From the NCBI GenBank assembly GCA_958009085.1, contig OY253668.1, positions 1 through 64,000 of the forward strand: a DNA stretch of 64,000 bases, given 5' to 3'. Below are positions 23,854-63,699 of this stretch, piece by piece. The notes beneath the pieces were generated by a model that searched no databases, had not been told where the DNA came from, and worked only from the letters and a program-made list of their open reading frames with translations. Positions within the stretch are counted from its first letter, which is position 1; each line of letters begins with the position of its first letter. This stretch comes from Protoeuglena noctilucae. Its lineage: Eukaryota. The position numbers and the translations under genes were made by a program.

Positions 23854-25568
23854 CTACCTGCGTGCCCCCGGCACTCCACCCGCAGGCGCGCCCCTGCCAG
23901 CCCCAGGGCCCCCAGCCGCGCCTGGCGCGCCGAGGTTGCTCGAGCTGCCGTTGTAGGTGTACGCCAGCCCCGCGCCTGCGACAGGGCAACGGGCCGGGTC
24001 AGCTCAGCGCCCCCTTGCACCGGCAACCGCCACGCGCGCTCTCTCCACATCTCCCGCACCCCTCGCTCACCTCTCCCCGCCCCCGCCGTGGTCGACGCCG
24101 GCCTGGCGAAGTTGTGCGCGAACTGCCCGTACTTGTTCTTGAGGGACCTGTCGACGTTCATCTTGGCGCGCTTCTGGGCGCGACGGTCGGCCTCCCACGC
24201 CGCGCGGTCCTGGGCCAGGCTGGGGGAGTGAAGGGGGCAGGGTTGAGTTGGATTGGAGATTGGCATGGGGGAGGGCAGAGATGAGTGGCATGGGGGAGCA
24301 GAGGTGGGTGCAGGTGGATGAGTGGCACAGGGGGTGCAGGTGTGCCAGTGGCATGGGGAAGAGCACAGATGGGTGCCGTCGCATAAGTGGCATGGAGAGG
24401 TAAAGATGTGCGCCACAACACACGGGAAGTCTTACTCCACCCCGAGCAACCCCCCCCCCCCCCCCCCCCTCACGCGTTGAGGTTGTTGTCTGCCCTGGCG
24501 CGCCCCTCCTCCCCCGCGTAGGGGTCGTAGTGGCCGAACTTGTGGCCGAACAGGTATCGGAAGGTGAGCAGCAGGAGCACGATGGCCTCGTCGATGCCGG
24601 CGACGAGGATGAGGGCGCCGCCCCGGTGGATCTTGGCCTGGAGGGCCGCGGAGGGGGAGTGCATGAGCTTGACGAAGTTGTAGGGCTTGCCGGCCATGAC
24701 GCCGCCCACCACGAGCTGGAAGACGAGCAGGAACTGCAGGGGAGAGAGGGGGAGAGGGGGAGGTGAGTGGGGTAGCAGGGTGAGGGGTGCAAGGGGACGA
24801 GCTGGAAGAAGAGCAGGAACTGCAGGGGTGAGGGGGTGAGGAGGGGGGGGGGAGTGGGGTAGCGGGGATGACGGGGTTAATGGCATGAGAGGGGTGTGAG
24901 TGGACGTGGGGTGTTGGGAGCAGGGGAAGGCGAGTGGTAGCGCGGTGGTGGCACCATCACAAGCTGCGACTCACCAGCGACACTGCCATGATGAATGCGA
25001 TGACTGTCACTCACCAGTGACACTGCCATGATGAATGCGATGAAAAGCTTCTTGCCCACGCCTGCGATGGGCACCATGGCGATGGAGACGAGGAGGGTGG
25101 CCAGGGAGAGGATCATGAGGAGGGCGCCGCCCCTGCCTGCGAGAGATGACATCACGAGCAAGATGAGGGGAGGGACGCGGGATGGAGGGGCGCGGGGGGA
25201 TGGGTGACGGGGGTGGGGGCGAAGGCAAAACAACACCACGCTCTGCCTGCGCTCACTCTGGACGGGGAACTCGATGACGAGCGTGTAGATGAACATGGCG
25301 AGGCCGAGGAGGACGTTGACGGACATGAAAAACCGCATCATGCGCACCTGGGGGGGCGGGGAAGGGGGCGACGTTGCATGGAAGCGAGCGCGACGCCCCT
25401 GGCTCCCCGCCTCGCGGCGCTCAGAGCGAGGCCGCAGCGCCATTGCGAGGGCTTCACAAGAGCACCCCCCTGCCCGACGACGGCCGGCCCGCCCGCGCGG
25501 CAGCTCACATAGAACGTCGCCTCGCCGAGGTGGCTCGGCACGTCCGTCTCCATGGCCCCGAGCGCCAT
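23854..25568 (-). CDS. Four-transmembrane (tetraspanin-like) membrane protein with a basic C-terminal tail
   Basis: Spliced model with four hydrophobic segments; frames are consistent across GT-AG introns; no family recognised with certainty. Confidence 0.6.
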
Positions 25569-26053
25569 CTTCCCCCGATCCCAGCCACGTGTAGCGGAAA
25601 GCTAGTTCACGGGACGCCCAACCCGCCCGACTTCCACCCCGCGCGTCGCTCCAAGGGCCGTTTGGCCAACTGTCTCTGAGCACCCGCCCCAACGAGAGCC
25701 GGACGCAAACCGAGAGCTCGCCGGCGCCTCGAAGCTCTTCTCTCCAGCCTCACGAGGAGAGACGGCGCGCGCGGGCCAAAGATGCGACTCAGCGGGCTCA
25801 GGGGGCCGAGGGGACGCGGGCCAGGACCGAGTCACGCGCTAGCGAACGAGTCTTCGCTTGTGCCGAAAGTTTGGTCATCAAGTGGCCTTTCCGCGCGCCA
25901 CAAGGGGGAAACGCGACACCGTCGGGCGGGGATGCCCGAGGGTCAGCCCTGCTTTTGTCCGTTAAAGCTCGCTGGCTGCGATGGCCTAGCCCATGCCGGT
26001 CTATGAACTGGATCCTGCACGATGTCCGACGCGGAGGGACGGGGACCGCATGC

Positions 26054-29000: not shown

Positions 29001-30560
29001 CCCCCGCCTTCCTCCGCGTGATCGCCGCGGTTCCCTCGCCCCCACCCCCGCGGCAGGCACCCGGCGCTGGGGTCTCTCTCTTGGCTGGGAGGGGCTACGG
29101 AGGGACGGGCGTGTGCCGTGGTGCTGACCCTGTCATGGGGAATGCGACTGTCCACGGCGCCAGAGGGGCTGGCACGCGCACCGCTTGCGGCTGAGCTGGC
29201 TGCGGCATCGGGGCTCGTGGCTGCACGCGCGTGGGTGACTGCAGCCACTGCCAAAGCCCCACGATCGCGGGAGGTGGGTGCGGGAGCGTGGGCCGAGAGG
29301 CGAGGGGCGGTGGCCTCGCGTCGTGAATCTGCAAAAAGGAAAAGAACAACAAAGTCACGAGGACACCGCCTCTCACAGCCCAACACGCAAGCCCAGCCAT
29401 GCACGCCACACCGCCCCACCTGCCGCCTCGGCCCATGTGTTGCTGCCGGCTCTGTCTGCCTCCGCCCATCCCTCGTGGACAGCCGCGCGACCCCAGGGCG
29501 ACCCCCAGGCAGGGAGGGGCGGTGCTGCGAACAGTCCCTGGGATGCATTGGACCGAGATGAAGAGGGAGAGGGGGAGGGGGAGCGGGAGCGCCAGACGGT
29601 GCGCTCGCGGGGCACAGCGGAGGGTCCCGCAGATCCGGGAGTGGACAGTCGCATGGACCGCGGTGCCCATGGGTGCTGCCCCACCCTGTCACGCCCCGGC
29701 TGCATGCGCACAAGCGTGTCCCCCTCCTCTTCTGCGTCTCTGTCAGAGTCAGAGAGGCTCATGTCCAAGTCGATGTCTGGATCCCAGTCGTCGATGTCAA
29801 CGTCGACGTCACTGGCGCGGGCCCCTAGAAGGCTGGGGTCGTCGTCCAGCCAGGGGGGAGCGGTGGTCATGGCTGCGTCGAAGGCAGATGAGGGACTCGG
29901 GCCGGCGCTGGACGACGGCGGTCCGCCGCGGCGCTGCACGACGCGGAAAGCGCTTCCGCCCACGCAGCAGGGCCAGTCGGGCGGCGGCGCCGCGGCCCCG
30001 CATCGCCACAGCGACGTGCCGCAAACGGTGCTGGGGCCCACGCCGCGGTCGGAGGAGGGACCCGCGGGGGCCGCCGATGCGTCGCTGGAACTCCCTTCCG
30101 CGATCGTGGCGCGGGGACGCATCCAGAGGAGGCCGCTCGGGGCCCGGCTGAGGTCCTCTGCGGACGAAGCCGCGTGGGAGCCCGGCCGGCCGCGCGCGCT
30201 CCCGCCTTCGCCCGCGCCGAGGCGTGGGACGAAGGGAGACGCGTCCAAGCCTTCGCTCGCCTCCGGGACCGCGCGCAGGCCGAGGGCCCGGCGGACGAAG
30301 GCGTCGCCCTGCAGCGGGGAGCGCAGGTGCTGCTTCGGCGCGCACAGAGCGGGACCGCGGCCGCGCATCCGCCGGCCATGGCGACTGTACATCGACTGCA
30401 CCTGCAGCGTCGCGAGGGTCGCCTCCGTGACCGCGGCGCGGTACTCGAGCCGCACGACCGCCTCCGCGGACACCCCCATTGGACCTCGGATCGCGTCCGG
30501 TCCCAGGACCTCGACGCCCTGCTGCGCCGCATCCGTGAGCATCGAGTGCACGAAGTCCAT
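26054..30560 (-). CDS. F-box-like motif + right-handed parallel beta-helix repeat protein with a long disordered N-terminus
   Basis: The ORF ending near 29418 splices in phase to the exon carrying LLALQRMPDDLIERVL; repeated GVxVxxGxxxL-C beta-helix strands; both ends approximate. Confidence 0.65.
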
Positions 30561-31012: not shown

Positions 31013-33210
31013 TCAGTAAGCGCCTGCCCCGAGGTGCGCAGCCACGCACAGAAAGTCAGAGAAGACGCCCCCGGCCGTCACGGCAGCGCCCGCGCCGGGC
31101 CCCTGGATGACGAGCGGCCGCGTGGCGTACCGCGTCGTGGTGATCTCCACGACATTGTCGCTCCCCTGCAGCGCCGAGAAGGGGTGGTCCGCTGGGTACT
31201 TGCGGAGCACCACCTCGCATGACTGCGCCTCCACGTCCACCACGGCTACGTATCGCAGAGACTCCCGGGACTCTTTGGCCTCCTGCGATGGGATGAGGAT
31301 GGGGATGCAGTGGGTGATGCGGACGTGGCAGGTGCGAGGCTGCAGGTGCGATGCAGCAGTTGCGATGCTGCAGGTGTGGTGCAGGCGAGTGCTTGCAACG
31401 CAATCGCGTCCCGTCCCACGCTCGCCTGGTGGCGTGCAGCCATGACGACGTCCAGGGAAGGCAGCTGGCGCATGAATTCATCCACAGAACACGACGCGAG
31501 ACTCTGTGAGATAGAAGAGGAAAGAGCGCGCTGACAGCTGTCTGCTTGTGCAAACATGCGAAGCACCATCACTGCAGAATAGTAAGCACTTCTCGCTCGC
31601 TCTCACACCTCGGGCACGAGGCTCTGGACGTGGACGTCCCTCAGCTCCGTGGTCAATCCACACTCGCGTGCCAGAATGACGGCCTTGCGCGCCACGTCCG
31701 TCCCTGACAGGTCGTCCCGGGGGTCAGGCTCCGTGTACCCCTCCGCACGCGCCCCTGCATTGCATAGACCAAGTAAGGTAGGGTAGAGTGGGGTGGGTGC
31801 CCGTCATGCGAGCGCTATGGCTGTGTGCCGTCATGTGATTCAGTGAGATGACTATATGATCCCTGCTGTCCCCTTCTATCCACTGCGCCACTCACGGCTG
31901 ACGCACTCGGACCAGCTCTTGGACTCCTTGCCGAATATGTTGAAGAGGAACGACAGTGTGCCTGACAGGACGCCCTCGATGCGCAGGACCCTGTCTCCCG
32001 TAGCCTGGAGGTGCTTGAGGGTGGACATGATGGGGAGACCTGCACCGCATGTGGCCTGCAGGAAGAGGGTGAGGGGTGGCATGAGAGAGAAAGAGGTGTG
32101 GTGAGGTAATGGACCATGCAGTACACAGCAAGTCGCCGTGTTGATGCATGGGCGATGGCTCTGGCACAGACGTGCTGTTTGTCTAAGCACGTTCCCAGTG
32201 TTGCTGGTCTCATCACGTCCCCCACGTGCCTCGTAGAAGTACAGGGCTCCCCCGGTGCGCATCAGCTGCCGTGCTGTCAGATAGTCCTGTATGGGACCCG
32301 TGTTGAAGCGCTTGTTGGGCGTCACCACGTGCACCCCCGCACGCATCCACTCCAGGTACCGACTTGGCGCCTCCGACCCCGCTGCATTACACAAATTACA
32401 AACAGCAGGTGATTGTTGACTATGTGGAGAAAAGGCCTAACTGTGTTGGATCGCCGTTGGGCGCTTCCGACCCCGCTGCACGACACAGGTTACGAACGGC
32501 AGGTGACTGTTAACCAAGTGAAGAAGGCCCCCAATGTATTGCTTCGCTTCTCGCCCATGCCGCATCACTGATCGCCCTATGCCGCGCACCCGTGCAGTCG
32601 ACGATGACGGGGTGCAGGGAGAGGGCGCGGCTGGCACGCACGACCTCGTGGGCAAAGGCGTGGATGTCGGATGCCGTGGTGGACGCGCCCAGACGCTCCT
32701 CCCACTCGTCGTAGGGAATCGGGGTATCCGACACGACCATCCGCTGAGACCGCGCCACTCCCAGCAGCGCCAGGTCTAGGTTACGCTCCGACGCCAGCAC
32801 GGGGGCCTGGGCGCGCAGCTGGCTCAGCAGCTCGCGGCCAATCAGCCCGGGGCCGATGAGCCCGATGCCGAGGCGCACTACCTGGTGCCCCGCTGCGAGG
32901 GCGAGGGGCGGGGAGGTCCGCGTGAGGCAAGGCCCTGCGTGTTGCTCGCTCTGCAGTGCGCCTCATCGCTAGCCGAGGGCGAATCGACGGAGCGCGCCTC
33001 ACCCATGATTATTTTTCGTCCTCGAGCGTGTCTTAGCGCAATGGTCTTGATCCGTAGCGGCACGCGCGCGCAGCTTAAGCTGTCTTTCGCCAGACGCGCG
33101 ACAGAGATCCGTGTTTGGGGCCCGCGCCTGAGCCCGCCGCACAGTCTGCACGGTACATCGTGACTCCTGTTGGCGAGTGAAGCAGCCATCGGACGTGTCA
33201 CTGTCTCCAT
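31013..33210 (-). CDS. Monofunctional homoserine dehydrogenase with a putative transit peptide
   Basis: [79 protein letters not shown]; start may be 33210, 33189 or 33006. Confidence 0.9.
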
Positions 33211-35937: not shown

Positions 35938-38900
35938 TCATTGCAGCGTGAATCCGTCCATCTCCCCCTCGTCGTCCTCCTCCTCACCATCCTGCGAGCC
36001 AAGCAAATGCACAGGGACCATAAAACATGTCAATACATGATTGCATCAACACATCGCATTGCATTGCATCACCTGCACCCGTACCCACTCATGTTGCCCA
36101 CCCACTCCTGCTGCAACATCAACACATCCGCACATTTCCCGCACCCGCACCCGCACCCGCACCCGCACCCCCCACCCCAACCCCACCCTCGCCCACTCAC
36201 CCACACCTTCCTCCGCTCCCCTCCCCGCCCCTTCCCCCACCCCTCCGGCCCCCACTCCCCCCCCTCCGCCTCCTCCGGGTCCACCTCCACCCACCCCTCC
36301 TCCTCGAAGTCATCATCGTTGTCATTATCTTCATTATCACCACCCTAATCCCTCGCACCACGCACCCTACCCACCCCCCACGCACGCCCACTCTCCCCCT
36401 CCCCCTCATCCTCAAACCCATACTCCCCCCCCCCTCCCATCCTCCCCCTCTTCCCCACCCCACTGCCCCTCCCCCTCCCCCTCCCCCACTGTCATCTCCC
36501 CATCCATCTCGATGTCCCCCTCCTCCCCCTCTCTATCTTCCATACCCTCCCCATCCACCACCGCTAATCCATCGCCGTACCATGCCGCGTCTTCCGATGC
36601 CACTGCCACGGAATCCAAAGCCAAGTCACACAGGACCTGGAAGGGGGGGAGTGAGTGTGGCAGTGGGGGGTAGTGAGGGAAGGGGTGGGGGTGAAGGTGA
36701 GGGTGTGGGTGGCAGTGTGGGGTGTTGGTGTGCGAGGGTGGTGAGAGACTGTAACACATATGTGAAACACACGCTCAATTCATCTCACCCGTGCCCCTCA
36801 CCCCACCAACACTCCCTTCCCATTCACCCCAACACTCTCTCACCCCATGCACACCAACACCACTCTCCACCCCCCATTCATTCCAACTCACCTGGAGCAG
36901 CTCTGGCGGGTACATGGGTGGCTCCAGCATTCACCCCAACCCTCCCCATTCACACAGCACCCCAACACTCTCCCCACTCACAATCCCCGATCCAACAATC
37001 ACCTGGAACAGCTCTGGCGGGTACATGGGCGGCTCCATGGCCATGGCCTGGTGCATGAGCACCGTAGACGGCGTCAGCCCCGGCAGCGTGTTTGCCTCGA
37101 TCACCACCACGTCGCCCGTGTCGGCGTGCACGAAACAGTCGATGCGGGCCAGGCCACGCAATCCCAGTGCCAGTGTGACCTCCTCCGCCATGCGAAGGGC
37201 CGTGTCCAATGCCCACTCGGACACTGGGGGCGGGGTTGTGGGGGGGTGTGGGGGGGTTGTGTTGGTGTGAGGCGTGGTGATACGGGTAGCAGTGGGGGTG
37301 GTGTTGAGGGTGTGATTGAGGGTGGCAGCGCGGGTGGCAGTGGGGGTGGGAGTGGGGGTGGGGGTGAGGGTGGGGGTGATGGTTGCAGTGGGGGTGGCGG
37401 TGGGGGTGGTGGTGGGGGTGGCAGTGAGCGTGCGTGTAAGCGTGAGCGTGCATCTGCAGTGCCCACGTCGCTCCAACCACCCTCCCTCACTCCCAAACCC
37501 CACCCCCTATATATAAACCCCCACCCCACCCCTCTCTCACCGATCGACGCGGGCGGTGGCGTGAGGTTGACCCCCGTCCCCCCCTGGAACTTCTCCTCCA
37601 GAGTGAGCACGTCCCCCATGCCACGCACGGTCAGCGATGGTTGGAAGGGCTTCATGCGGTCGCGGGGGCCCAGCAGGCCGAACGTCATCTCGACCCAGGG
37701 GGTGGACGCGGCCCATTCCAAGCGCTCACCGTCATTCGAGGCAACCACGCGCACGGGATCTGGTGGGGGAGGGAGGGGGGGTATGAGGGGTTACGGAGAG
37801 TGGGATTTGAATGGAACGGCTTGTGAGTGGGGCAGAGTTTGGTGTTTCGGTGAATGGCTCGACCACAGCAGCCCATGCCGCTCCCTCACCCAGCACCCGT
37901 CCCCATGACATATGCATATATGCGTACGATCATATTCACATCTCCATTGTCTCTCACCCGTCTCAATGAATGGCTCGAACAGCAGTGCCTCTGGCGTGTC
38001 GGTGGGGAGCTGGATGCGGGGGTGGGGCTCGGACAGCGTGTTGGGGGGGATGTTGGACGCGCCCAGCTGTGGGTGGGGGGGGGGGGGGGAAAGGTGAGAG
38101 AGAGTGAGAGAGAGGTGAGAGATCACATACTGCACCATCCAACCACCACTGCTCTCTCTGACATCCATTGCAATCAACTATCTCACACCATCTCACCTCC
38201 ATCGCCACCACGTACTGCACCAGGTCGTCCGGCACGCTGAGCTTGGCCACGCCCGTCGAGCACCCGTCCGCCGACGGCTTCACGCAAAGGGCGCCGGGCG
38301 CGCCCAGGAATCCCTGCAGCTGCGCGAAGAGGGAATCCGCGCTGCCCTCGAGCAGGACAGACTCCATCACGTCCTGGGGGGGGGGGGGGGGGGGGGTAAG
38401 TGGGGTGGGGGATTGAGTGGGGTAGGAGTGACAGGGGGATTGAGTGGGGAATTGGGTGGGGGTTGGGGGTGGGGAGCGAGTGCGTAACCCCCCTCACCTC
38501 CGGCGTAAACGGTTCCATTCTGCAACACACCCACCCCCACTCTCTAACCCCTCTCTCACCTCCGGCGCGATGAGGTGCTTGGGCGCGGTGCTGATCCCCT
38601 TCGGCTCCAAGGCTCGTAGCACCTCTGCCGTGTCGTGCTTGTCCATGCACACGGCAGACGCACGACTGTCGGATCCCGTGAATGGGACGCGGGATCGCTC
38701 CAATAGGTCCTGCAGGGAGCCGTCCTCGCCCACGCCACCATGCAGGGCGATCTGGGGAGATTGGATTGGATTGGGGGGGTGATATGGGGGGGTTGACGGT
38801 GGTAGCAATTGGGGTGGTGACGGTGATGGTGGTGTCGATAGCAACAGTGGCTGGGAATGTACAGCGCATCGCTTCTGCCGTTGCTTGCCGTCGCCACTTC

Positions 38901-41900
38901 CCCATCCCAGCTCACTATCGCCGCCACGAGTCGCGACTAACATTGTAACCCCCCCCCCCCCCACCCATCCCCCCCCTTTACTCACCAGCACCGTGGCTCC
39001 CGCGTGCCTCGCCTCCTCCGCAAACGCATGCAGATCTAGATACCTAGCCGGGGGCGGGGGCGCGACCGGGTCGTCCCCCCACAGCCCCCCCACCCCCCGC
39101 ACGCCCGCTTTGGCCAGCTCCCCCTGCACCACCACCTGCATGTCCCTCAATGCCAGCGAATGCGCATCCAACGCCGCTTCGCTGGTCAGATAGAGTTTAG
39201 TGGAGTCGTCGCATGCGTCTGCGATCTCCTCGGCCGTGTGCAGCAATGAGAGGTGGTAGGGGACGGCCCAGACGCCGCGGGAGTCGAGGGGGGAGGGGAA
39301 CCTGAGGGGAATGGGAGGGGGGGTTATGGGGTGCGAGAGGGGGGGGGTTGGGATGTGTGTGGGGTGGGGGTGAGTTGGAGGGAGTCGAGTGGGGAGGGGG
39401 ATTTGGGGGGGGAGAGGGGGGGGGGGGTGTGTGGGGGGGGTGGGGTGAGAGAGGTGAGAGGGTTGGCGTGCGGGTGACGTGCTGTTCACTTCCCACCCCA
39501 CGCCCATCCATAGCCCCGTCCATGCACCCCCATCCTACCCCCACGCTTCATTGCACACCCCTCCACCCCCCACACCCCCTAGCACCCATACACCCCATAC
39601 ACCTCCACCAACACCCTCCCCCCCTTAGCTCCCTCACTTGGGCGGGCATCGAATGTTCCTCAGCTGCAGTTCGTCCGGCAGATCTTCCTCTGCCATCCCC
39701 GCCTGCAGCAATGTGATGCGCTTGCGGAGGAGGGCGGCGCGCCTCTCGCGGCCGCGGCGTGTGTCGGGGGTGTCGGGGATGAGGAGGAAGGCGTCGGCCT
39801 GGGNNNNNNNNNNNNNNNNNNNNNNNNNNNNNNNNNNNNNNNNNNNNNNNNNNNNNNNNNNNNNNNNNNNNNNNNNNNNNNNNNNNNNNNNNNNNNNNNN
39901 NNNNNNNNNNNNNNNNNNNNNNNNNNNNNNNNNNNNNNNNNNNNNNNNNNNNNNNNNNNNNNNNNNNNNNNNNNNNNNNNNNNNNNNNNNNNNNNNNNNN
40001 NNNGGCGGAAGTCGAAGATCTGAGAGAGGGTGGAGAGAGAGAGTTAGATAGTTGGTGAATGGTTAGTTAGTTGTTGTTCATTAACTGAGAGAGAAGGGGG
40101 GAGATGGGGGGTGGTGCATGCCAGGGAGGGGTAGTGGCACACACGCACGCACGCACATGCACATATATGCAAACACACACATACACACATGCATAAATGC
40201 CCATGTGCATTCAAACACCACCACCCCCCTCTCACCTCTGGTCTGTCTTCGTCCCCGTCGTCCTCCTCATCGCCCTGGTCGTTGTTATCCACAAACTCCA
40301 ACCCATCATCATAGTCAATACCATCATTATCATCACCACCCTCCCCCGCCCCCACCGCTGCCCCCCCTCCCCTCCCTTACAGTCACACCACCATCACCCC
40401 CCCTCCTGTCACCAACCCCACTCCCGTCACCATCACCATCACCTCTCGTCACACCACCACCCTCACCCCCCCTTGTCACATTACCATCCCCCCCCAATGC
40501 CTCCCCCAGCCAGTCCCCCGCAGTGCGCTCCTGCTCCTCCATCGCTACTTGCATGTCCACCGCTCGCACCAAATCCGCATCCTCATCCACCAGCTCCACC
40601 TCGGTCGGCATCAGAGCCACAGGGCCTGAGAGAAAGGGGGGAGGATGGTGAGAGAGGGGTAACAGGGGGTTTATACTATCCACTGAGCTCGGTGCTCATG
40701 AACACACCAACCCACACAGCCACATACGCAACCCCCTCATCCCCTCACCCCTCTCGGTATCAACCACGATGCACGTGAACTCACAAGCACATCAACACAC
40801 CCACTCATCCACACCCACACCAACCCACACAGCCACATACGCAACCCCCTCATCCCCTCACCCCTCTCGGTATCAACCACGATGCACGTGAACTCACAAG
40901 CACATCAACACACCCACTCATCCACACCCACACGCTAAGCAACACTCACCCCTCTCGGTGTCAATCACGATGCACGTGAACTCAAACACACACATACACA
41001 CCAACACACACCCACTCATCCACACCCCCACCCACCCATACACACTCACCCCTCTCGGTGTCAATCACGATGCACGTGAACTCGACCTTCTCCTCCACAA
41101 ACGCCTCCAGCACCGCAACCCCCCCCGGCACCTCCCCCCTTTCAAGGGCTTCATTCAAATGCGACATTGCCTCATCCGAACTCCCCACCACCCCCACCCC
41201 CAGGCTCGAACCCCCCCTCGCCGGCTTAGCCACCATCCACCGACACCCGTGGTTGGTTTGAAATGCGTTGATGTCGTTGATCAGTGCATTGCGTTTAATG
41301 GGGTCTGCCAGTGCGCTTGTAACGTCTGGGATGGGGAGCTGGGGCACGGTGGGGAAGCCCAGGGAGGCGAGCTTGGCGGTGCACTGGGCCTTGTCGAACG
41401 CCACACTGGGTGGGTGGGGGAGATGAGAGAGTTAGTGAGTGAGAGAGTGGGAGTGATGTGAGAGATGAGAGGGATGAGAGAGTGAGAGGTGTGAGTGTGC
41501 ACTGGGCCTTGTCGAACGACACACTGCATGGGTGGGGTGGGGATGGGGATGGGAGATGGGACAGACGAAAGAGTGTGTGGATGGGGGAGTGAGATAGGCG
41601 GGGGAGATGAGAGGTGGGTCACCGTCGCTGTGCATTCTGACGTCTCGCTTACCTCTCCCATACATACAGCACCCCACTCCCCCTCACCGGCACACCTCGG
41701 CCGACGACCCCACGAACGGCACCCCCCTCTCCTCCAGCAACGCCTGCAATTGGCCATCCTCCCCGAACTCCCCATGCATGGAGGGGAACACCACGTCCAC
41801 CGACTGGGCCAGGCGATCGGCCAGGGACTCGAGGGCCCCTAAGGGGGTGACGGTCTGGACGGCGTAGGCGCGGGGGTCGGCAGGGGTGGGCTGTGGGGGA

Positions 41901-50036: not shown

Positions 50037-53000
50037 GCTTGGGAGAAGATCACATCGCGTGCATTCTGTTCGGCTGAGGGCCGCTCAAGACGACCAACTC
50101 AGGGAGTACCCTTCTGGCAGAGGTGTCTCGACGCGCCCAGCGCGAACCACGCCGTCGAAAACACGGAGGACTGGCGCTACAAAGTTACAGATCCGCTCTT
50201 CAGGCGCTTGTGCCCGCTCGAGTGCACGAGTCGGCCGCAAGGTTCTCCGCACTTTTTGTCCAGCTCGCCGCGCTCGTCGAACGCCCTTGCACGCCACTCT
50301 GCGTGCCGCTCAATCCCCGGGTCAAGAGGCTTCAAAAGCTTGCTCGGCCGTGGTCCTATCCTCGCGATGCGGCCCACAGCTTCCGACCCCGGCCTGGGGG
50401 CTCTTGCGTCCGAAGACGACGCCCCCGCGCCCAGGCGAGCCGCGCGGGGCTCGCCTCTGTGCGCCGATTGCATCTTGATAAAAGCCAAATGCGATCGCGG
50501 TGGCGTCCTTTGCTCCGCAGCGGGCGGCACCGGCTCGTCAAGCGCGCCCTGTCGCGGAGCCAGCTCTCGGGCACCGGGAAGCATTACGCGCACGCGGAGC
50601 CGTGGTACGCGGTGGGAGACATGGAGAACGACGACGAGAGCGAGACTCTCAACATGAACTGGCGCTTCATGAGGCAAGCGAAGCGCGCACGCTGCCGTGC
50701 ATGGCGCACGGGCGAGAGAGTTGTTCTTTTTTGACCCGCGCGTCGCCGATCGATCTCCGCAGCGACTCCCTTCGCGAGGACTCGACGCCGGGCGCCCACA
50801 CCGGGCGCAAAGGGGCATGGAACCACGCACACGCGAACGGCAAGGCCCGTGGTTCCTTCGTCCCCCCGGATAACCTGCCCCCGCGCCTGGGCATCATGGA
50901 GCTGGTGAGAGCGAGGGTGTGGGTGTCAAAGCCAGCAGGAATGGGGCAGCAGATTGCGAGTGTCAGAGGGCGCAGCGAGTCACCACGGGCGGTGCTTGGT
51001 GGTGTGGTTGACGCCATCGGTCACTGCCCCTGCAACATACCTGCCTCCGCCGCAGCTCACCTGATATCGCTCTCACTTGCCTCCCCCAGGCCCGCGTCAT
51101 CGCCAGCGAGGCCCTGGTCCCCGCCTGCACGGCCGCCAACGTCGCCACGGCCGTCCTCGCCCTCCGCCGCCCCTGGGCCGCCCCGGGCACCCGCCTGGCC
51201 CACGCACAGGGCGCGGTGGGGGCGGCCGTGGCGCTGGCGCTCGCCCTGTCCATGCGCGCGCAGGCCATGGCGGGGGTGCTGCTGAGGCTGCCGGGGCTGG
51301 ACTGGGCAGCGGCGGCCGCCCATGCGGTGGCACCCGCCCTCGACCGACTCTGCCAGGCGAGAGGGGTGGGGTGAAGCGGATAGGGTTGCATGGTTGACTG
51401 TCATGCGTGGTTGTTGCGGTGCTTGATCTGGTGCTGACGACGCTGCTGTCAGCCCGACGCGCACCAGCGCTCTTGGTTTGTTTGTACCAGCACACACGCA
51501 CCCCCAGCTACAGCCCACCCACCCCTTCCCGTCTCGCAGAAGTGCGCGGTGGGCGACCTGCCCGTCAGCCGCGTGCTGTCCGGGTGCATTTCATGGCCGC
51601 TGGGCCTGGCGGGGCTGGGCGTGCGGTGGCTGGCGCGGGCGGTGGTGACGGGGGCGGCGGCGTGGGTGGCCGCGCCCTTCGCACCGCTGGCGCAGCTGCG
51701 GGGGTGCGCGTGGCACGTCAAGGCGAGCGGGAGGGGGCGAGTGGCTGTGGTTGTGGTTGCGTTCGCGATTACCACCCCTAGGTTGCCACGAGTCATATTA
51801 TGACTCCCTCCCCACTCGTTACCGATTCCAAGCCCACCCTGTTATAATTGCAGAATGTGCTGGCGGACCTGACCGTGCACCGTGGCCGCCGCGCCGCCCT
51901 CAGCTCCGTCAAGTCCCTGGCGTTCCGATGCATGAGGGCATACGCGGCGCTCATCGAGGTGACGTATGGGCACTTGATGAAGCGTGACGTGATACCCGAT
52001 CCATCCCCCTCAACCACCATTGCCACTCTCATTCCCCCCCCCCCAGTCCCCTTCCCTCTCCCACCCCTCACCCCCCACTCACCCCCACCCCCCGTCCCTC
52101 CCTCCCCAGTCCCTCCCCCTGGCCGTCGGCTCCTCTGCCCTCCTGGCCCTGTCCCTCGCCTCCCACGCCCCCCCCGGCGTCCCAATCGCCCTCGCCGCCA
52201 CCGCCGCCCTCAACGCCTGCCGGTGGGTCGCGGAGAGGCGTGCCTGGGGCACTGGGGGTCGACTGATGCGGGTGGTGGCGGGGTGGCGGATGGCGAGCCT
52301 GGCCGTGCCCGACGAGGACCTGCCCCTGCTGCACTACGCGGCCATGGTGAGAGAATGGGTGTGATGTGGATGATGTGTGATGTGATATGCACTACGCAGC
52401 CATGGTGAGAAGTGATGAGAGGGTTACGACAGATAGATGTGAGGGAGATGCACAGTGTGGGAGTGCAGTGAGGTGTGGTGATGGAGTCTTATATTCCCAT
52501 CAGTACCATCGCCTTTCCTGTCACCTCGCAGCTGCCAGACACGGAGTCCCTTCGGCTGGTGCTGGAGGAGGGGGTGGCGGAGAACACGAGGGACGCGCGG
52601 GGCAGGACGGCCATGCACCTGGTGGCGAGCAGGGCAGAGGTGAGGGGGGGTGATGGTTGATGGTTGATGAGACACGGCCATGCACAGCAGTGGCAGAGGT
52701 GAGAGGGTGGTGGTGGCGGGTGTGGTAAACGTCAGACTGCCATGCACAGTGGGGGTCGCGAGAGGCAGGGCCGCCGTGTGATGAAGACAGCAGCACCTAT
52801 GCACTAGACAGGCACGCGTCGCGACGTGCGAGCGTGGCTGCGTCTGCCCATCATACACCCCCCGTCATTATCATTGTAACAATAAACTGATGGTAACAAT
52901 ATACTTCGTCGCGCTCCCTGTCCCGCAGCTGGGCTGCTCCGATTCCAGGGCCGTGGACCTGGTGGTGGACGAGGGGCGGTCGCTGGCCACGCAGATGGAC

Positions 53001-54594
53001 GCGCTGGAGCTGCTGCTGGAGGTGAGGGCTGTGGGCCCATGGCTCAATGCCCGTCCTGTCCTTGTATGCACCTAAGGGGTGATGTGTAGCAAGTGACCGT
53101 CGCACACCACTGCTACCCCCTGCTGCGTCAATTGAAACGCCCTGCGCTCGTCTCAATCCATGCAGGCGGGCGCGGATCTGTTTGCGGTGGATGATGGCGG
53201 CATGACGCCCCTGCACGCGGCGTGCCATGCTAAGAACTCGGAACTGGCGGGGGTGAGTGGGGGAGGGGGGGATGACAGTGACCGGAGGGGCGGGGTGTGT
53301 GAGTGGGTACACGTGACCATCACTTGCAGCGTCTGTGTGTTTTGATGGAGCACATGGTGCCATTCGCCGCATCTAATGTCACTTGATGCATCCCTGCATC
53401 TCTCCCCCACCCACTCAGGCGATGGTGGAGCATGTGAGCATCTCTGTGTCTTAACATAGCATCTGATGCCACTCATCTCATCTCTCTCCCCACTTCCCAG
53501 GCGATGGTGGAGCACGTGATGCGCGCGGTGGGCGCTGCGTCGGCGATGGAGCTGGTGAGGGCGACCGACCGCGACGGCTGGACCCCCCTGCACTTTGCGG
53601 CCAGCAACGGAGACGCGGCGCTGGTCGCCAGGCTCGTGGGGCTGGGGGCGGACGTGCACGCCACCGACCACATGCGGAGGATGCCCCTGCACATGGCGGC
53701 AAAGGTGAGAGAGGGTGTATGGGGGGGCGGAGTGGGTGACTGTGCATGGGTGTTATGGTGCGGGTTGCTCCCTGCTTGCGTGATTATTTATCAATCGCGT
53801 CGTCACAGTCACAGAGTGACGGCCACTCTGTCGCTCATCACTCGTCGCTTGCACTCGTCGCCCGCAGCGTGACAGCGAGGGCCACGTGGCGACCATGACG
53901 GCGCTGATTGAGTGCGGGGCGGACGTGGATGCCACCGACTGCACCGGGTGAGTGGCTGCCTTGCATGGCGTTAGAGGTGGCGAGAGCAGGGCAGCGTGCG
54001 CACAGCGCATCGGGCGAGGGTGGCCGAGTCGCTGACATTCTTAGACTAAGCATGGTCATACCTCCACACCCTGACACAAAACAGTGCCAATCTAATCATG
54101 TTCTCCACCTTCACCACAGTGCCACCCCTTGGATGTACGTGGCAAAGGTCATGGACCGGTGCCGGGATGCGGAGGCGAGGGGGCGACTCGAGGTGATGGT
54201 CGCCGTCATGACGGAGATCGCATTGGGGAGGTTCACGACCGGGCCCAGGGGAACCCGACGGCTCCTGCCGGGGTCGCGGGGGTCGCCGGCGTCGTCCTCC
54301 CGCCCCTCCTCGCGCCCCAGCTCGCTGCCCTCGTCGCTGCCCGGGTCGGTGCACGGGGGCGTGGCGGCCGCGCACCTGCTGCGGGCCTCGCGGCTGGGCA
54401 CGCCCCACGCGCCCCCGCACGTGCTCAGCGACGGGTTGCTGTCGCGGTTCGCCCCTCGCATGGAGCGCATCCGCGAGGAAGCGCGTGCCGAGGTGGCGGC
54501 GGAGGAGGACCCTAGAAACGAGACGGGCATGCTCGACACGCTCGAGGGGGACGAGGGGAGCCTGCTGAATTTGGAACTGGAGGCGGACGAGTGA
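50037..54594 (+). CDS. Membrane-associated ankyrin-repeat protein (5' end uncertain)
   Basis: Hydrophobic middle exons, then ANK motifs GRTAMHL, GMTPLHAA, GWTPLHFAA, RMPLHMAA, GADVDATD. Confidence 0.75.
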
Positions 54595-58002: not shown

Positions 58003-61000
58003 ATGGCGGAGCAGCGATTGAGGTCCGTGCGCCGGAGCCGGCAGCGTGGGCCGAGGCCTCGTCATCGGGGCCTTGGCTGCGACCGGGGGACGTGCGCCGT
58101 TGCTACCCGTGCGCGCTGACGTCGCTCCTGGACACCGCGTGACGCGGGCGCGCCAGTTCCGTGTCTGCAGGCGCAAGGTCACCGTAACCCTTCCGATATG
58201 TGACAGCTCGCAACACTGCGCTTCCGTGGACGCCCTGCGGATATCCCCCGGTGGGTCCCTGCCATCCGCGGCGTCGCTCGGCCCTCGAGCGCGTCCCGCG
58301 GGCCGAATGATAGGCCCCCCTGCCTGACCGCCGCGCGCCCCGCTCCCTCAGACGGCCGTCATCTGTTCTCCGCGTCGCGGGACTCCACCATCAAGCGATG
58401 GGTACTCTCGCCCGGCGAGGGGGATGCGGAGGAGGAAGAGTCGCGCCACCCGCGGCACGAGTCGGGGGAATTTGGAATGGAGATGGACGCACTGTCGCCG
58501 CGGACGCCGCGGAACGTTGCAGACGACGAAAGCGCAGGTATGCGCAGCACCAGAAGGGCTGCGGACGCGAGAGGACGTCGCGCGCGGGGTGAGAGACGAC
58601 GTTGCTTTGTTGCTGCGCCCTGCACGCCCCGCGCCCCGCTCCTCCCCGCAGCCGGCCCGCGCTTCGAGGCTTCGTTCGAGGGTCATTCCGACTGGGTCAA
58701 CGACTGCTGCGTTCTCGAGGATCTCCTCGTCTCCTGCTCCTCGGATTGCACGGGTGAGGGTGGGCGCGATGGGCTGTGTGGGTGGTGGTGGTGGTGTGAC
58801 TGCGACCGAGCGTATGTTCTCATCCCCCACATCATCATCCTCTCCCCGCCCCCTCGGCCCCCCCGCAGTGCGGTGTTGGAAGGCGGACGCAGCCCCGACT
58901 GCAGCAGGGACCGTCGCTTGCCTTCACACGCTCACGGGCCACAGTGACTTTGTGCAGTGCCTGGCAGCGGCACCTGCCGCGGCAGCGGTGGTCAGCGCGG
59001 GGTGCCTGGGGGAGGTGTTTGTGTGGAACCTGGGAGGGGACATGCGGGGGGTGGCCATTGGTGAGGGGAGGGGGGGCGTGGTGGGTTGCGTGTGAGATGA
59101 GGGGCAGAGGCTGAATGAGGTTAGGGAATTGGGAACGCGGGACAAGTGTTGCAGCTGCCTCCGGGTATCTGTAAGGCGTTGCATATGTACACGACACTCG
59201 ACTCGTCGCGTGCGTCAGAGTGCGACGCTGCCAACACCTGCCCCCCTCTCGCAGGAGGTGGCTCTGCGGCTGCGCAGGGCGGTCAGCGCCACAGCACATA
59301 CGCGGTGGACTGCACAGCGAATGCAAACACGGTGGCGACGGGGAGCACGGCGGGGGGCGTGCGGGTGTGGGACGCGCGGTCGGGTCAGATGACGCACGAC
59401 CTGCAGCTGCACACGGGGAACGTCAGGGCGATCCAGATCAGCGCAGATGGGCAGGTGAGAGAGGGGGAGGAGGGGTGTATGGGTGTCACTCGCAGCATCC
59501 CCATCCCCTGATCAACCCCCTCCCCTCCCCTGCAACTGCACACCCCTCACCCCTCACCCCTCACCCTCCCACCCCTCAGATGCTCCTTTCCGGCGGCGCC
59601 GACCGCACCGTGCGTCTCTGGGACCTGGGCCAGCACCGCTGCGTGGGCACCTACGTCATGCACGCGGAGTCCGTGTGGGGCATGCACGCCGACGAGCATC
59701 TGTCAGAAGTGATCAGTTGGGACAGGGGCGGGTGCGTGTTTCGCACCGAGGTGGCGTCGGGCGACCACGCCCTGCTCGTGCGGGAGAGGGGGGCCGTGCA
59801 CGCGCTCGCCGTGCAGGTGAGGGGTAGGGGTGTTTGGGGGGTGTCCAGCGGTGGGGGTGGATGCGTGTGTCTGTGGGTGTGTTTGGGTATGGGTGTCTGG
59901 AAAGCCAAAGCACTTGACTTCCCCATCCCCTTACCACCTCTGCCCATTGTACACCCCAATTGTGCACCCCCCCACTCTCTCCCCAATGCAGTCCCCCTCC
60001 CCCTCCCCCGACTGCGAGCTGAGCCTCTGGACGTCGTCAGTCGGATCCGACATACGTAGATGGGACGTGCCTGCCCCCGGCACCCACCCCGCGCGCCGAC
60101 CGGAGTCGGCATCACGGTCTCCCTTCGCGCGGTCGTCGCCGCTGCTGGCGGGGCACTCCAGGGCAAGGGGTGAGTGGTTGGGGTTGCAATTGGAATGGGT
60201 GGAGATGGAGGATGATAGCGGGTGGTAAGAAGCGTGGGGGGTTTGTTAAAAAGGGTGGGGCACTCCAGGGCGAGGGGTGAGGAGAGAAGGGGAGGGTGGG
60301 AGTGAGAGGGTGCGGGGGCAGGGGTGCGAGAGCGACTCAATTCCCATCCCCCTCCACCACCACCAACCAACCCACTCCTCTCCATCCCACTGTACCCCTC
60401 AACCACTCCCCCCGCACCCAACGCAGGCGAGTCCGTGCGTGCCCCCGCGGCCGTCGCCCGCCCCTCCCTGGAGATCCGGGGAGTGCCCCCCCTGACTCGG
60501 TTCCGCGTGCTGCCAGACAAGCGACACGTGCTGACTCAGGACCTGACGGGGTCGCTGTCGCTGTGGGACGTGGCCCTGGGGCAGCCGGTGCGGGCGTTTG
60601 AAACAGGGACGCCCTTCGACGCGCAGTACAGGCGAGGGGAGATGTGTGTGCGTGTGGGTGTGTGCCGAGGGGTTAAAGAGTGGAAGTGTAATGCATGGAT
60701 GTTCGTAAATGTCAGCCCTTCCAATCACATCCACCCCTCACCCCACCCCACCCCACCCCTCACCCCTCACCCCCTCACCCCCACCCCCCCCCTCACCCCC
60801 AGAGAGCTCTTCGAGCCGTTGATGGTCGCCTCGTGGTTTCTGGCAGACACGAAACTGGGATGCCTGTCATTGACATTGGACCCAGCCACGTGCTTCTCAG
60901 CTGAGGTGTATGCATTGGATGTGGGGCTGTCTCACCATGCCGAGGAGACGAAGCTCAACTTCGGGGGGCAGGTCGTCGCGGGGGCGTTTGATGCGTGGGC

Positions 61001-62628
61001 GATGAGGGCGGGGCACGCGGTGAGGGGGTGGGGGGTGTGGTGGGGTGGGGTTGGGTGCGGGGTGAGGGGTAGTTGGGGTACCCATGTGGTAGTTGCCATG
61101 CATGTTCTGCATCCTCGCACACAGCACAATGCGCACGTCTGTGCATGCCGTTGTCCACCCCCTCATCCCTCCCACCTCTGTGCATACAATGGCCACCCCT
61201 CTCCATGCTCTTCCTGTCCCCCCCCTGCACTCAGTCCGTGGTGCGTCAGCGTCACCGATTCCTGTACGGCCACGACAGCCCACTGGTGCCCGCCATCGCC
61301 AGGGCACTCATGGGGGAGAGTGCCAGTGACGGTGTCAGCACGTGGGGCGCGAGCGACGGAGCGAGTGGGGGTTACCGACCACGGCCCAGCGACGGCAACC
61401 ATGGGGGCGCTGTTAATGAGAGCGAGGCAGACGCGGGGCCTGTGCAGTCGAATGACGCACGCGCTGGCAGTGCAGGGGGTGGGGTGGATGCCGGGGTTGC
61501 GGGTGGCAGTGCGGGTGCGGGTGCGGGTGAAAGCGGGTGGCTGCACCGGCGCCCTGTGTTTGCGTACGGGGTGGGGCGGAGTGCGGTGGTGGCGAGTGAG
61601 GATGAGCGGGGCAGGCCGTGGCGGGCGGTGTGCCGGGACGTGGGGGTGGGGGATCCTGGGGGGGCGCAGGTGAGGGGGTGGGGTGGGCATGTGGTTGAGG
61701 GTGGCGGTGGTGGGGGGCATGGGGGTGAGATGGGGTGGGGTGCGTGCGTGAGGGTGGTTGGGATGATTGGAGGTTGCATGGGTGAGGGAGAGATGGGAGG
61801 CATGGTGAGGGTGGTGGAGGGGGTGGGTGTTGCGAGGGGCACAGCAGCAGTGATAGGCGATCAATCTGCATTGCTCATCCCCTCTCCACCTCACTTGCCA
61901 CCCCCCTTCCCCTCTCCCATCTCTCCTCCACCCCACCCTCTCTCATTACCCACTCCTCCCACCCTCTCATCATCCGACCCTCTCTTCTCACCCCCCCCTT
62001 TCCTCAGATCCCCGACTGGGTGCGCAGTTGGGTTTTGAAGGAAGAAATGCCCCAGGGACTCATGGAGCGATACCGGGCACAGAACGACTCCAAAATCACC
62101 TTCTACCTCACCCCCGAGCCGAGGTGCGGGCTGCCGGAGCTGCCGCAGCCCATGCTGGTCGCGCCAAAGATCCTGCAAGTGCGCAAGGCGGCCACGTACG
62201 TGCAGCAGCGGCTGGGGGAGGCGGGGCGCGTGTGCCGGGTGCGGGATCCGGCAGAGGGGGGCGTGGGAGAGGGGAGGGAGGGGGTGGTGGAGCTGCTGGC
62301 GGTGGGGAGGGCGGGTGAGTGGGGGAGAGGGGCGGTGGGGGTGGGGGTGGGGGAGGTGGTAGTGAAGAGGGCAGGTTTGAGTGGGGCCTGCGATTACCAC
62401 ACCCACTTCACCGCACCCTTCTCTTCCCTTTCTCTCAAGCACTCTCAATCACTATACCTCTCATTACCCCACCCCCTCCCCTCCCCCCCAGTCCCCTGGT
62501 CCCTCACCCTTGTGGCTCTCAAGCACTACGTCTTCAAGGGCAGCGACGTGCAGCTGACTTTCCGGCCCCTGGGCCCGGACGGACCCGCGCCTGTGCTGAC
62601 CATCGAGCCACCGGCCAAGGATGGGTAG
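58003..62628 (+). CDS. WDR48: WD repeat protein 48 (UAF1/LRS1), USP activator
   Basis: RKVTVTL, LFSASRDSTIKRW, FEGHSDWVND, LLSGGADRTVRLWDLGQHRC, SWFLADTKLGCLSLTL, KLNFG, ILQVRK, LTLVALKHYVFK. Confidence 0.92.
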
Positions 62629-63699
62629 AGGTCGATGACGGGGTGCGTGCGGTGACTGGTTAAAAGATGACGGGTCACAGTGACTGGTCACGAGATGACT
62701 GGTTACAATGATTGTTGACATGATGGTCGCTCGCCAACACACCACCGGCCAAGGATGGTGGGTAGAGGTCGATTGGTGGCATCCATGCAGTGACTGGTCA
62801 GACCATGATGGTGTTTCGACACGTGCGCTTTTGCTCGATGTTCAAAATGTGAAGGGCCGCTCCAAATCTCGCGTCATGGGACCGCCGTTGCTGTCTTGCC
62901 GCGGTGCGCTTGCGACCTACGAGACGCGGGTGCAGCCGGGGCCTCGCAAAAAAGGGTGCATGAGAGCCCCATGCATGAGGGGGCGCAAGGCGCGGTGCAA
63001 GCAACGGGGCGGGCGCGCAGGCGCAAAGCAACTGCGCACGCGGCTGCGGCGAGCGGAGCGGAGCGGAGCGGTTGGTGGGGGATCACGCAGATCGCGGCTG
63101 TCTGGGGCCTAAGGGCTCTGTGCGGGAGACGCGGGCAATGCCGCCGGGCACTGAAATGGCTCCTGGCGGGGGCTGCCCTCCCTGCCCCGGGTGGGTGGCT
63201 GAAGGAAACGGGATGCACAATGCAAGAAACTGACAGAAGGCTAAACGAGCAGGGAACGGATGGTAGAGAGACGGGATAAGCCCGGTGGGCGGGGGGGGTG
63301 GGGGGGTTGGGGGAAGTGGCAGGGTGCACTGCACGAGGGACGCAGTGTGAGATGCCATGTCTTGGCTGTCAGTGGCTGGGTCGGTTGTGGCTGTCAGTGG
63401 TGGCTGTCGATGAGCGGAGTGGTGAGGCGCTGCGTGTCGATGCCTCGAGAGATGGGGCGCCGCCTGTCCGTGCCTGTCGATGCTTGGTTGGTGGTGGCTG
63501 TCGGTGGGTGGAGTGGCGAGGCGCCACTGGCCTCGGGAGAGGTATGAGAAGGGGTGTCTGCGGGATGCGGGGAGCGTGGGGTGAGAGGAACTGGATAAGT
63601 GAGACTGGATATGTGAGAGACCTGGTTGGGCAATAGCCATATGCCGCGCTCCGCTCACCGCCACGTTCGCTCGGCCGCTGCCACGAGCCAGCTTGGCCG

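Follow-up and report, generated by a model that had tools for sequence, protein, structure and literature searches.

Short copies of exon ends that lie in the introns beside them, here called echoes, are probably small head-to-tail tandem duplications (40 to 134 bp, median 100) that happened to include an exon-intron junction. About 13 such loci occur within 40 kb, spread over five genes of a GC-rich marine eukaryote, in the 64,000-nt stretch of DNA analyzed as a whole (the window).

Local repeats in the window

The pairs listed in a first-pass annotation are real: all 15 pair comparisons were recovered, and 14 of them have 0 to 2 ungapped mismatches, as had been said of most copies. The exception, 62608/62742, carries a 3-nt insertion, with 9 ungapped mismatches and 90.6% identity over 32 gapped columns. 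Local repeats were collected from a 12-nt seed, with a length of at least 20 nt and copies no more than 400 nt apart (telomere 1-300 left out); those with a dinucleotide entropy of at least 3.0 were counted as complex, and the null consisted of 60 dinucleotide shuffles within 200-nt blocks. The window holds 35 direct pairs, 20 of them complex (shuffle means, 0.02 and 0), and 3 inverted pairs, 1 of them complex (shuffle means, 0.07 and 0.03). No dispersed complex repeat was found in the 64-kb window, and Rfam and tRNA scans of it returned no matches; the copies are local, direct, and gene-specific rather than members of a transposon or Introner family, as the annotation had held.

Read on the coding strand, 11 of the 13 loci are echoes of a splice site, seven of a donor and four of an acceptor; of the other two, one carries exon-internal sequence into the upstream intron and the other a stop-codon region into the 3′ UTR. 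Among the listed segments, 42235-42259 is exon-internal coding sequence and not a splice site. The genes concerned are Pfam-backed, and splice sites outside the Ddl gene were read by frame and motif only.

Echo loci in the Ddl gene

By homologue comparison, this gene encodes a double D-Ala-D-Ala ligase of the plant-type double form. It has at least 11 introns, and all 11 that were mapped are GT-AG. Two candidate source organisms were dropped on intron features: Pelagomonas, whose genome averages 0.45 introns per gene (PMC9481584), and Emiliania huxleyi, in which GC donors make up about 60 to 65% (PMC4028052), compared to 11 GT donors of 11 in this gene. Six of its loci carry duplications:

36888..37037, minus strand: second half of Ddl, donor echo with a period of 111; true exon end (35 nt) plus GTGAT at 36999-37037, echo, with GTGAG, at 36888-36926
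40670..41083, minus strand: four-unit donor array, periods 100, 88, and 113; units U1 40984-41083 (true exon end plus donor), U2 40896-40983, U3 40783-40895, and U4 40670-40782
41379..41537, minus strand: acceptor echo, period 118; functional CAG plus exon start (VAFDKAQC) at 41379-41419, echo at 41497-41537
42235..42365, minus strand: exon-internal copy, 25 nt and perfect; source 42235-42259 (codons SHTQLYCNT, homologue-backed), copy 42341-42365, 36 nt ahead of the acceptor of the upstream intron
42387..42618, minus strand: three copies of GACGCCGCCAGGGAGGG... at 42585-42614, 42477-42506, and, truncated, 42387-42403, periods 108 and 103; the first two end in ...GATCACGG followed by GTGAG
43150..43329, minus strand: donor echo, period 88; true exon end (19 nt, ...LDHLHTT) plus GTGAG at 43306-43329, echo at 43218-43241

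Homologues align to the outer copies and back three exon ends (43311, 41050, and 37003) and two exon starts (42304 and 41405). No homologue covers 42585-42614, a segment that is a candidate exon end or intron-internal. Echoes occur at 6 of the 22 junctions of the mapped introns, and tandem repeats make up 25.5% of the intron bases. Eight of these 11 introns are strongly G-skewed, from +0.47 to +0.89 in the first third and from −0.80 to −0.96 in the last. That the copies lengthen introns, as first suggested, is borne out by the intron at 40626-41049, in which some 300 of 424 nt are duplicated units of 88 to 113 nt; here, TRF finds a period of 113 at 40703-40933, with copies of the 113-nt stretch that are 100% identical.

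A metagenome scan with a Ddl exon gave 33 loci, all with 46 to 80% identity over about 25 to 50 residues and taken for bacterial-type Ddl; the Ddl of this organism was absent among them. A protein word search with the ORF 40985-41431 for longer proteins gave no match. A candidate echo at 38555-38567/38493-38505 (13 nt) is too short to exclude chance.

Echo loci in other genes

The remaining loci, together with one intron-internal repeat for comparison, are as follows:

24711..24877, minus strand: acceptor echo with a period of 86 in a gene for a small membrane protein, within its last intron; functional acceptor and the first 23 nt of the exon at 24711-24742, upstream intron echo at 24797-24828 (TRF: period 86, 1.9 copies, 87%)
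24964..25043, minus strand: donor echo of two abutting units with a period of 40; 25004-25043 holds the last 29 nt of the true exon and GTGAGT, 24964-25003 the echo
32366..32525, minus strand: homoserine dehydrogenase gene, acceptor echo with a period of 94; functional unit 32366-32431, in which 50 nt of intron end precede 16 nt of exon, echo 32460-32525 (66 nt, 82% identical, ungapped)
52330..52410, plus strand: ankyrin-repeat gene, donor echo with a period of 58; 17 nt of true exon end (LHYAAM) and GTGAGA at 52330-52352, echo at 52388-52410
53397..53519, plus strand: acceptor echo, period 82, in the ankyrin-repeat gene; echo at 53397-53437, functional acceptor plus exon start (AMVEHV) at 53479-53519
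60150..60281, plus strand: donor echo, period 107, in the WD40/DUF3337 gene; copies 60150-60174 and 60257-60281
62608..62773, plus strand: stop-codon-spanning duplication in the WD40/DUF3337 gene; true copy 62608-62636, 3′ UTR copy 62742-62773
17035..17159, minus strand: intron-internal tandem repeat, period 44, 2.8 copies, in the RRM-protein gene

Both 24711 and 25009 fall in a minus-strand gene, which makes the 24711/24797 pair an acceptor echo and not a donor echo. Between the two stop-codon copies of the WD40/DUF3337 gene lies a 28-nt tandem repeat (62652-62725). A further, diverged candidate echo is present at 52607-52644/52673-52703.

Structure and placement of the duplicated units

The first-pass annotation had described the re-copying of 20 to 40 nt, but most loci are tandem duplications of whole units of 40 to 134 nt (median period 100 nt, interquartile range 87 to 110), the intron parts of which have diverged. 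Gapped alignment shows whole units to be homologous past the 20- to 40-nt blocks: blastn alignments span 294 nt (40703-41083) and 129 nt (42388-42618; 80.6%), MAFFT alignments show homology along the unit length, and intron parts score at least about 2 SD above composition-matched shuffles in 8 of 11 measured loci. Head-to-tail units were not recovered at 60150 (similarity is confined to the 25-nt block, with a matched fraction outside it of 0.54, versus 0.52 shuffled), are weak at 52330, and lack flank similarity at 42235, where the blastn match is the 25-nt block only. Each of these three loci resembles two copies flanking a spacer more than a duplication of the whole unit.

Periods divisible by three account for 2 of the 15 echo periods; in coding-like ORFs, the 10 TRF rows checked (periods 6, 12, 15, 24, 30, and 36) are all divisible by three.

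Duplications also lie away from junctions. The comparison repeat at 17035-17159 forms most of an intron of about 163 nt and contains no exon sequence; the others, intron-internal or in UTRs, are 63397/63491 (after a stop codon), 42505/42550, and 43639-43758. Roughly 13 of 20 events touch an exon, against about 48% expected from a rough, simple placement (P = 0.10), so the proposed bias of the process toward exon-intron borders is not borne out in this window.

Origin of the duplications

We infer a repair mechanism, a choice of splice site, and a selective filter. The first duplication would come from a staggered break or paired nicks that are filled in and rejoined, or from replication slippage; paired-nick tandem duplications occur in plants. 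Once two units were present, unequal exchange between them could add or remove units, and we propose that the four-unit array arose by such exchange. A donor-spanning duplication would be harmless if the upstream donor is used, and an acceptor-spanning one if the downstream acceptor is used; on this proposal, junction-spanning duplications survive for that reason, as intron-internal ones do, whereas duplications inside an exon would survive only if their length is a multiple of three. The mature mRNA would thus remain unchanged through use of the outer sites, which reading frame and homology suggest. The exon-derived part, constrained in the functional copy and made of ordinary complex sequence, would change slowly, and the G-rich or C-rich low-complexity intron part would change fast through indels, which would leave the 20- to 40-nt echo as all that a reader without tools sees.

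Three features are not fully explained by this tandem-duplication account. The first is the preservation of exon-derived parts, with 9 mismatches in 264 nt, compared to 145 in 675 aligned nt plus 65 gaps in intron-derived parts (Fisher P = 9e-14). Constraint on the functional copy alone would bring the exon part to about half the intron value, giving a probability of 1e-5 for 9 or fewer mismatches; the excess comes mainly from donors (P = 5e-5) and less from acceptors (P = 0.06). The second is the short exon share of the unit (16 to 35 nt of 40 to 118), with a mean percentile of 0.15 under uniform placement, a value this low arising in 0 of 200,000 uniform-placement simulations. The third is the clustering of unit sizes near 100 nt, which simple slippage does not predict.

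These features would fit a duplication process positioned by the splice junctions themselves, an explanation that we regard as unlikely but place ahead of the other alternatives. Breaks or nicks would arise preferentially near the exon-intron border (e.g., at the edge of a G-skewed intron start prone to R-loops or G-quadruplexes), and their fill-in would place a copy of 16 to 35 nt of exon and the splice motif about 100 nt inside the intron, with filler DNA in some cases. Besides the short exon share and the size clustering, it is favored by the three copy-spacer-copy loci, whose spacers lack clear homology, by exon-plus-motif blocks with mismatches of 0/24, 0/30, and 0/42 against about 25% beyond them, and by the strong polarity of the G-skewed Ddl introns. 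It is, however, at odds with the whole-unit homology of most loci, the like duplications away from any junction, and the nonsignificant exon-touching count; moreover, detection favors complex exon-derived sequence over a low-complexity intron background, and the sample is some 13 loci from one window. A broader form, slightly more doubtful, holds that in this lineage intron growth is mainly due to successive duplications, each of about 100 bp, with breakpoints set relative to the junction, 16 to 35 nt inside the exon, and that the exon copy is kept near-identical by re-copying or gene conversion while the rest decays; the process would be junction-anchored and coupled to transcription or splicing, as opposed to random duplication filtered by selection.

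Selection for a role in splicing is less probable again. Echoes might be kept as decoy or alternative sites (e.g., in NMD-coupled regulation) or as an optional micro-exon. The decoy signals that the first-pass annotation had noted are indeed intact, with GTGAG in 7 of 7 donor echoes and CAG in 4 of 4 acceptor echoes, and the exon-derived part has decayed less than neutrality would predict. The 43218-43241 echo is preceded by AG and could serve as an in-frame 18-nt micro-exon (43224-43241) that would add six codons. Against this, at a divergence of only about 3%, chance would be expected to leave 5-nt motifs intact; a switch to the inner sites would bring in 40 to 134 nt, with 13 of 15 periods not multiples of three; and read-through at 36999 meets a stop codon.

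An assembly artefact, in which haplotype differences or gap closing create false local tandem duplications, is highly improbable: a 200-N scaffold gap lies inside the Ddl gene (39804-40003), and a conserved exon part beside a diverged intron part resembles allelic divergence, but the echoes lie far from the gap and in five genes, and a four-unit array with two units 100% identical cannot be two alleles. The reads support the duplicated arrangement. Of the 31-mers sampled from 36000-44000, 0.99 are present in run X1, and sampled words are present at 0.94 to 0.99 in four runs of organism A and at 0.74 to 0.82 in two marine metagenomes, while words that cross unit boundaries would account for about 3.9%. 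ORFs from other contigs point both ways. P0001 (one contig, 1278 nt) runs from the exon directly into unit-2-type intron sequence, and its contig may have one unit fewer than P0009, although assembly collapse could give the same; P0009 (10 contigs) and P0011 have exon, unit 1, and echo as in the window, though both may derive from the same assembly. The exon A ORF, used as a query, matched a single ORF of the same species, P0011, which equals the window and so says nothing on polymorphism, and a word search with the antisense ORF 36766-37905 for alleles without the in-frame 111-nt unit gave no match.

Comparison with known systems

Gao and Lynch (2009) reportedly treated tandem genomic duplication, or internal gene duplication, involving splice signals. 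The first-pass suggestion that such events had gone undescribed was too strong, as tandem genomic duplication across splice signals is an established class (PMC3443670). In the Rogers model, reviewed in PMC3443670, local head-to-tail intragenic duplication copies a splice signal, the transcript stays intact through use of the outer site, and intron sequence grows, all as seen or proposed here. The model differs in that it starts from a duplicated exonic AGGT segment and makes each new intron equal to a single unit, with both sites derived from copies of one AGGT. The echoes instead straddle the border of an existing intron and lie inside a larger one, whose other splice site is outside the duplication (e.g., the 424-nt intron 40626-41049); they are a matter of intron expansion and not of intron birth. 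A genome-wide description of junction-spanning echoes was not found in the literature searched, which is not proof of absence.

Small tandem duplications also arise from fill-in at staggered DNA breaks by CST-guided Pol alpha-primase, and these are likewise direct, local, and tens to about 100 bp long (PMC8355091); the mechanism in our case is inferred from the product alone. Minisatellites or VNTRs in introns resemble the four-unit array, with its unequal unit lengths and perfectly duplicated 113-nt stretch, but the units here contain an exon end and a splice donor. In a system with 5- to 12-bp direct repeats around new introns, the repeats overlap splice sites, as they do here, and the loci at 60150, 52330, and 42235 possibly contain filler DNA; those repeats flank a whole new intron, whereas the blocks here are 21 to 42 nt, with the second copy inside the intron. 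Introners and MITE-derived introns (the subject of PMC9860276) likewise add intron sequence on a multi-gene scale, but the present loci lack a shared element or terminal inverted repeats, and each copy comes from its own gene; the lack of a dispersed repeat and the single complex inverted repeat speak against such a family within the 64-kb window. The 20:1 ratio of direct to inverted repeats argues against polymerase-theta-type templated insertions (direct plus inverted patches), which may nonetheless apply to a minority of cases, namely, the copy-spacer-copy loci and the patchy perfect blocks. Tandem exon duplication of the kind that yields mutually exclusive exons is rejected by the short stretch of exon copied (16 to 35 nt) and the periods, 13 of 15 being indivisible by three.

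Implications

On the favored reading, the echoes are a known type of mutation at unusual density. They would form a dense and clean set of examples of intron growth through small tandem duplications that also leave decoy splice sites behind, one intron having expanded from about 120 nt to its present 424 nt. The set is useful for annotating this genome, in which a gene finder or spliced aligner will meet between two and four identical donors or acceptors at a junction. If the short exon share, the units of about 100 nt, and the roughly six-fold better preservation of exon sequence hold genome-wide, they would point to a break or repair process placed by splice junctions.

Gene context at a chromosome end

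The stretch begins with a telomere and is therefore a chromosome end. Most genes were identified by Pfam searches on stop-to-stop ORFs, among them an Obg GTPase gene; the remaining features are as follows.

1–232: (CCCTAA)n telomere of 39 copies, followed by degenerate CCTAA-type repeats to ~344
24.5–25.6 kb, minus strand: small membrane-protein gene (from frame and splice motifs)
31–33 kb, minus strand: homoserine dehydrogenase gene (Pfam)
36637–43577, minus strand: plant-type double D-Ala-D-Ala ligase gene, Ddl (Pfam)
39804–40003: 200-N scaffold gap inside the Ddl gene, the only such gap in the window
52–54 kb, plus strand: ankyrin-repeat gene (Pfam)
58.2–62.6 kb, plus strand: WD40/DUF3337 gene (Pfam)

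An exhaustive protein search with a Ddl exon query returned eight proteins; when six of these were aligned to the window by tblastn, Ddl exons were found to end at 43311, 41050, and 37003 and to start at 42304 and 41405. The gene has at least 11 introns, and all 11 that were mapped have GT-AG borders. Introns here are low in complexity, with G enriched toward their starts and C toward their ends: on the coding strand, 8 of the 11 have a G-skew between +0.47 and +0.89 over the first third and between −0.80 and −0.96 over the last, the exceptions being the two introns enlarged by duplications on the donor side and the intron at 41406–41687. The N-terminal segment of Ddl resembles that of a homologue from the protein searches (P0004). 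The 1,006-nt Ddl intron holds two open, phase-compatible segments (42590–42673 and 42902–43045, minus strand) that could represent additional exons coding for a low-complexity insert; splicing 43311 directly to 42304 keeps the frame and agrees better with the homologues than does the extra-exon model.

Local direct repeats and their classes

The first-pass annotation had described near-perfect copies of exon ends ("echoes") lying close to their sources, usually in the neighbouring intron, and had proposed a templated-duplication process biased to exon-intron borders. The echoes themselves are confirmed, and the proposed interpretation finds partial support. All 15 pair comparisons were recovered where they had been placed, 14 with 0 to 2 ungapped mismatches, and the remaining pair (62608/62742) differs by a 3-nt insertion. 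Outside the telomere, a repeat-pair search (12-nt seed, length ≥20 nt, spacing ≤400 nt) of this window, whose G+C content is 66%, returned 35 direct pairs, 20 of which lie in complex sequence, along with 3 inverted pairs, one of them complex; in 60 dinucleotide-preserving shuffles of 200-nt blocks, the corresponding means were 0.02 direct, 0 complex direct, 0.07 inverted, and 0.03 complex inverted. The repeats are real, local, and almost exclusively direct. In the subtelomeric 24 kb (1–24500), which carries long coding-like ORFs, echo-type complex local duplication was not found, except for the intron-internal repeat at 17035.

Read on the coding strand, the echoes, named by first coordinate, sort as follows.

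Donor echoes (n = 7; exon end plus GTGAG copied downstream, in the intron): 43306, 41045 (which carries three), 36999, 25009, 52330, 60150, and 42585 (exon end putative, with no homologue match behind it)
Acceptor echoes (n = 4; intron end, CAG, and exon start copied upstream): 24711, 32366, 41379, 53498
Exon-internal codons: 42235/42341, a 25-nt perfect copy in the upstream intron
Stop codon spanned: 62608/62742, the second copy lying in the 3′ UTR
Additional candidates: 52607–52644/52673–52703, a diverged donor echo, and 38555–38567/38493–38505, whose 13 nt are insufficient against chance

The earlier account of 24711 matches the opposite strand; it is on the coding (minus) strand that this locus is an acceptor echo. 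GTGAG is intact in 7/7 donor echoes and CAG in 4/4 acceptor echoes, as expected without selection, because divergence is only ~3%. The echo at 43218–43241 has TTAG just before it and GTGAG just after, such that it could be included as a candidate 18-nt in-frame micro-exon repeating the six residues DHLHTT.

Tandem duplication of whole units

The copies had been taken to span 20 to 40 nt only; Tandem Repeats Finder (TRF), gapped self-alignment, and MAFFT revise this, revealing tandem duplication of whole units at most loci. TRF reports a period of 86 (1.9 copies) at 24711–24877 and a period of 113 (2.0 copies, 100% identical) at 40703–40933, and gapped self-alignment extends over 294 columns at 40703–41083, 129 at 42388–42618, 71 at 24711, 66 at 32366, and 41 at 53397. 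In MAFFT alignments, units are homologous over their full length at the 41045 array (four units), 42585, and 43306, the G-rich intron part being rich in indels. At 8 of 11 loci, the match in the intron part exceeds that of composition-matched shuffles by at least ~2 SD. Whole-unit similarity has three exceptions: 60150 (matched fraction 0.54, versus 0.52 for shuffles), 52330 (a weak intron-part match), and 42235 (a blastn match limited to the 25-nt block). The 15 echo periods (40, 58, 82, 86, 88, 88, 94, 100, 106, 107, 108, 111, 113, 118, and 134) have a median of 100 and an interquartile range of 87 to 110.

These duplications make introns longer (intron 40626–41049 owes ~300 of its 424 nt to duplicated units) and, judging by motif, leave putative intact decoy splice signals within them. 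In the homoserine dehydrogenase acceptor echo (32387–32436 versus 32481–32530), a hand count gives 11 intron-part differences; at 9 of them the functional copy has A or T where the echo has G or C. Transitions predominate, and three differences coincide with CpG sites in the echo. Since duplication the two copies have evolved asymmetrically, and either the functional copy or the echo may be the one that changed.

Border bias or general duplication

Duplications of the same kind also occur away from exons:

17035–17159, minus strand: 2.8 units of 44 nt, making up most of intron 17010–17172 of an RRM-protein gene (flanking exons ...VTIKRDKATG / RSKGYAFVEF)
37283–37432: intron-internal array, no exon
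39319/39396, 42505/42550, and 43639–43758: exon-free intron-internal pairs
63397/63491: exon-free, period 94, after a stop codon

By our own classification, ~13 of ~20 long-period noncoding events touch an exon, against 48% expected under a placement model (unit of 95 nt, intron of 300 nt, exon-internal events removed); at P = 0.10, in a rough test of one window, the proposed border bias is not borne out. Of the 22 junctions bordering the mapped Ddl introns (n = 11), 6 have an echo, and 25.5% of the bases in these introns lie in TRF repeats. Detection is itself biased toward exon-derived sequence, since the introns are of low complexity and exons supply nearly the only complex sequence visible to a reader or a complexity filter. 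Periods are divisible by 3 in 10/10 TRF rows checked in coding-like ORFs versus 2/15 echo periods, the pattern expected if duplications arise generally and selection on the reading frame then filters them. We favor, as the more probable reading, small tandem duplications that happen to span junctions and would be filtered by selection.

This account leaves several features incompletely explained, and they keep alive a minority reading in which a junction-anchored or filler-insertion mechanism lies behind the echoes. Exon-derived parts differ at 9/264 nt, versus 145/675 aligned nt plus 65 gaps in intron-derived parts (Fisher P = 9e-14). Constraint on the functional copy alone would leave the exon rate at no less than about half the intron value, under which the probability of ≤9 mismatches is 1e-5; the excess preservation is concentrated in donors (P = 5e-5), with acceptors contributing less (P = 0.06). 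The intron part at donors is slippage-prone, G-rich sequence, and the mismatch contrast likely arises from fast low-complexity indel turnover, forced alignment of nonhomologous indel segments, and a search that selects near-perfect blocks. Also keeping the junction-anchored or filler-insertion mechanism in play are the short exon share of each unit (16 to 35 nt of 40 to 118; mean percentile 0.15, with 0/200,000 simulations as low), the gathering of unit sizes near 100 nt, and a copy-spacer-copy form at three loci, where spacer homology is not detectable.

Assembly and mobile-element explanations

Sampled 31-mers of 36000–44000 are present at 0.94 to 0.99 in four runs of organism A and at 0.74 to 0.82 in two marine metagenomes. 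As words spanning unit boundaries make up only ~3.9% of all words, most boundaries must be present in reads, although the best-matching run may be the assembly's own source data. Two ORFs from the protein searches (P0009 and P0011), possibly from the same assembly, match the window in reading from the exon across unit 1 into the echo. In P0001, from another contig (1,278 nt), the Ddl exon is joined straight to a unit-2-type intron start (compared with P0009; window 40896–41083); P0001 represents either an allele lacking one of the window's units or an assembly collapse.

A transposon or Introner family, argued against from the start, is not supported at the scale of this window, as no long-distance repeats of complex sequence occur within the 64 kb. 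The sole sequence common to distant introns within the window is a 12-nt satellite (plus-strand consensus GGGTGGCAGTGG), found in introns of different genes at 37283–37432, 41906–41968, near 58752, 61499, and 62327.

Relation to known processes

Gao and Lynch (2009) reportedly described tandem genomic duplication involving splice signals as a route of intron change. The duplications here differ from the classical model of intron birth in that they straddle an existing border, the echo coming to lie inside a larger intron. That introns can change through tandem duplication of genomic segments containing splice signals is accepted (PMC3443670, PMC2809761), and fill-in at staggered breaks yields small tandem duplications of less than ~100 bp (PMC8355091). 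The echoes add many closely spaced new cases to a mutational class already known, and their quantitative oddities merit a genome-wide test.
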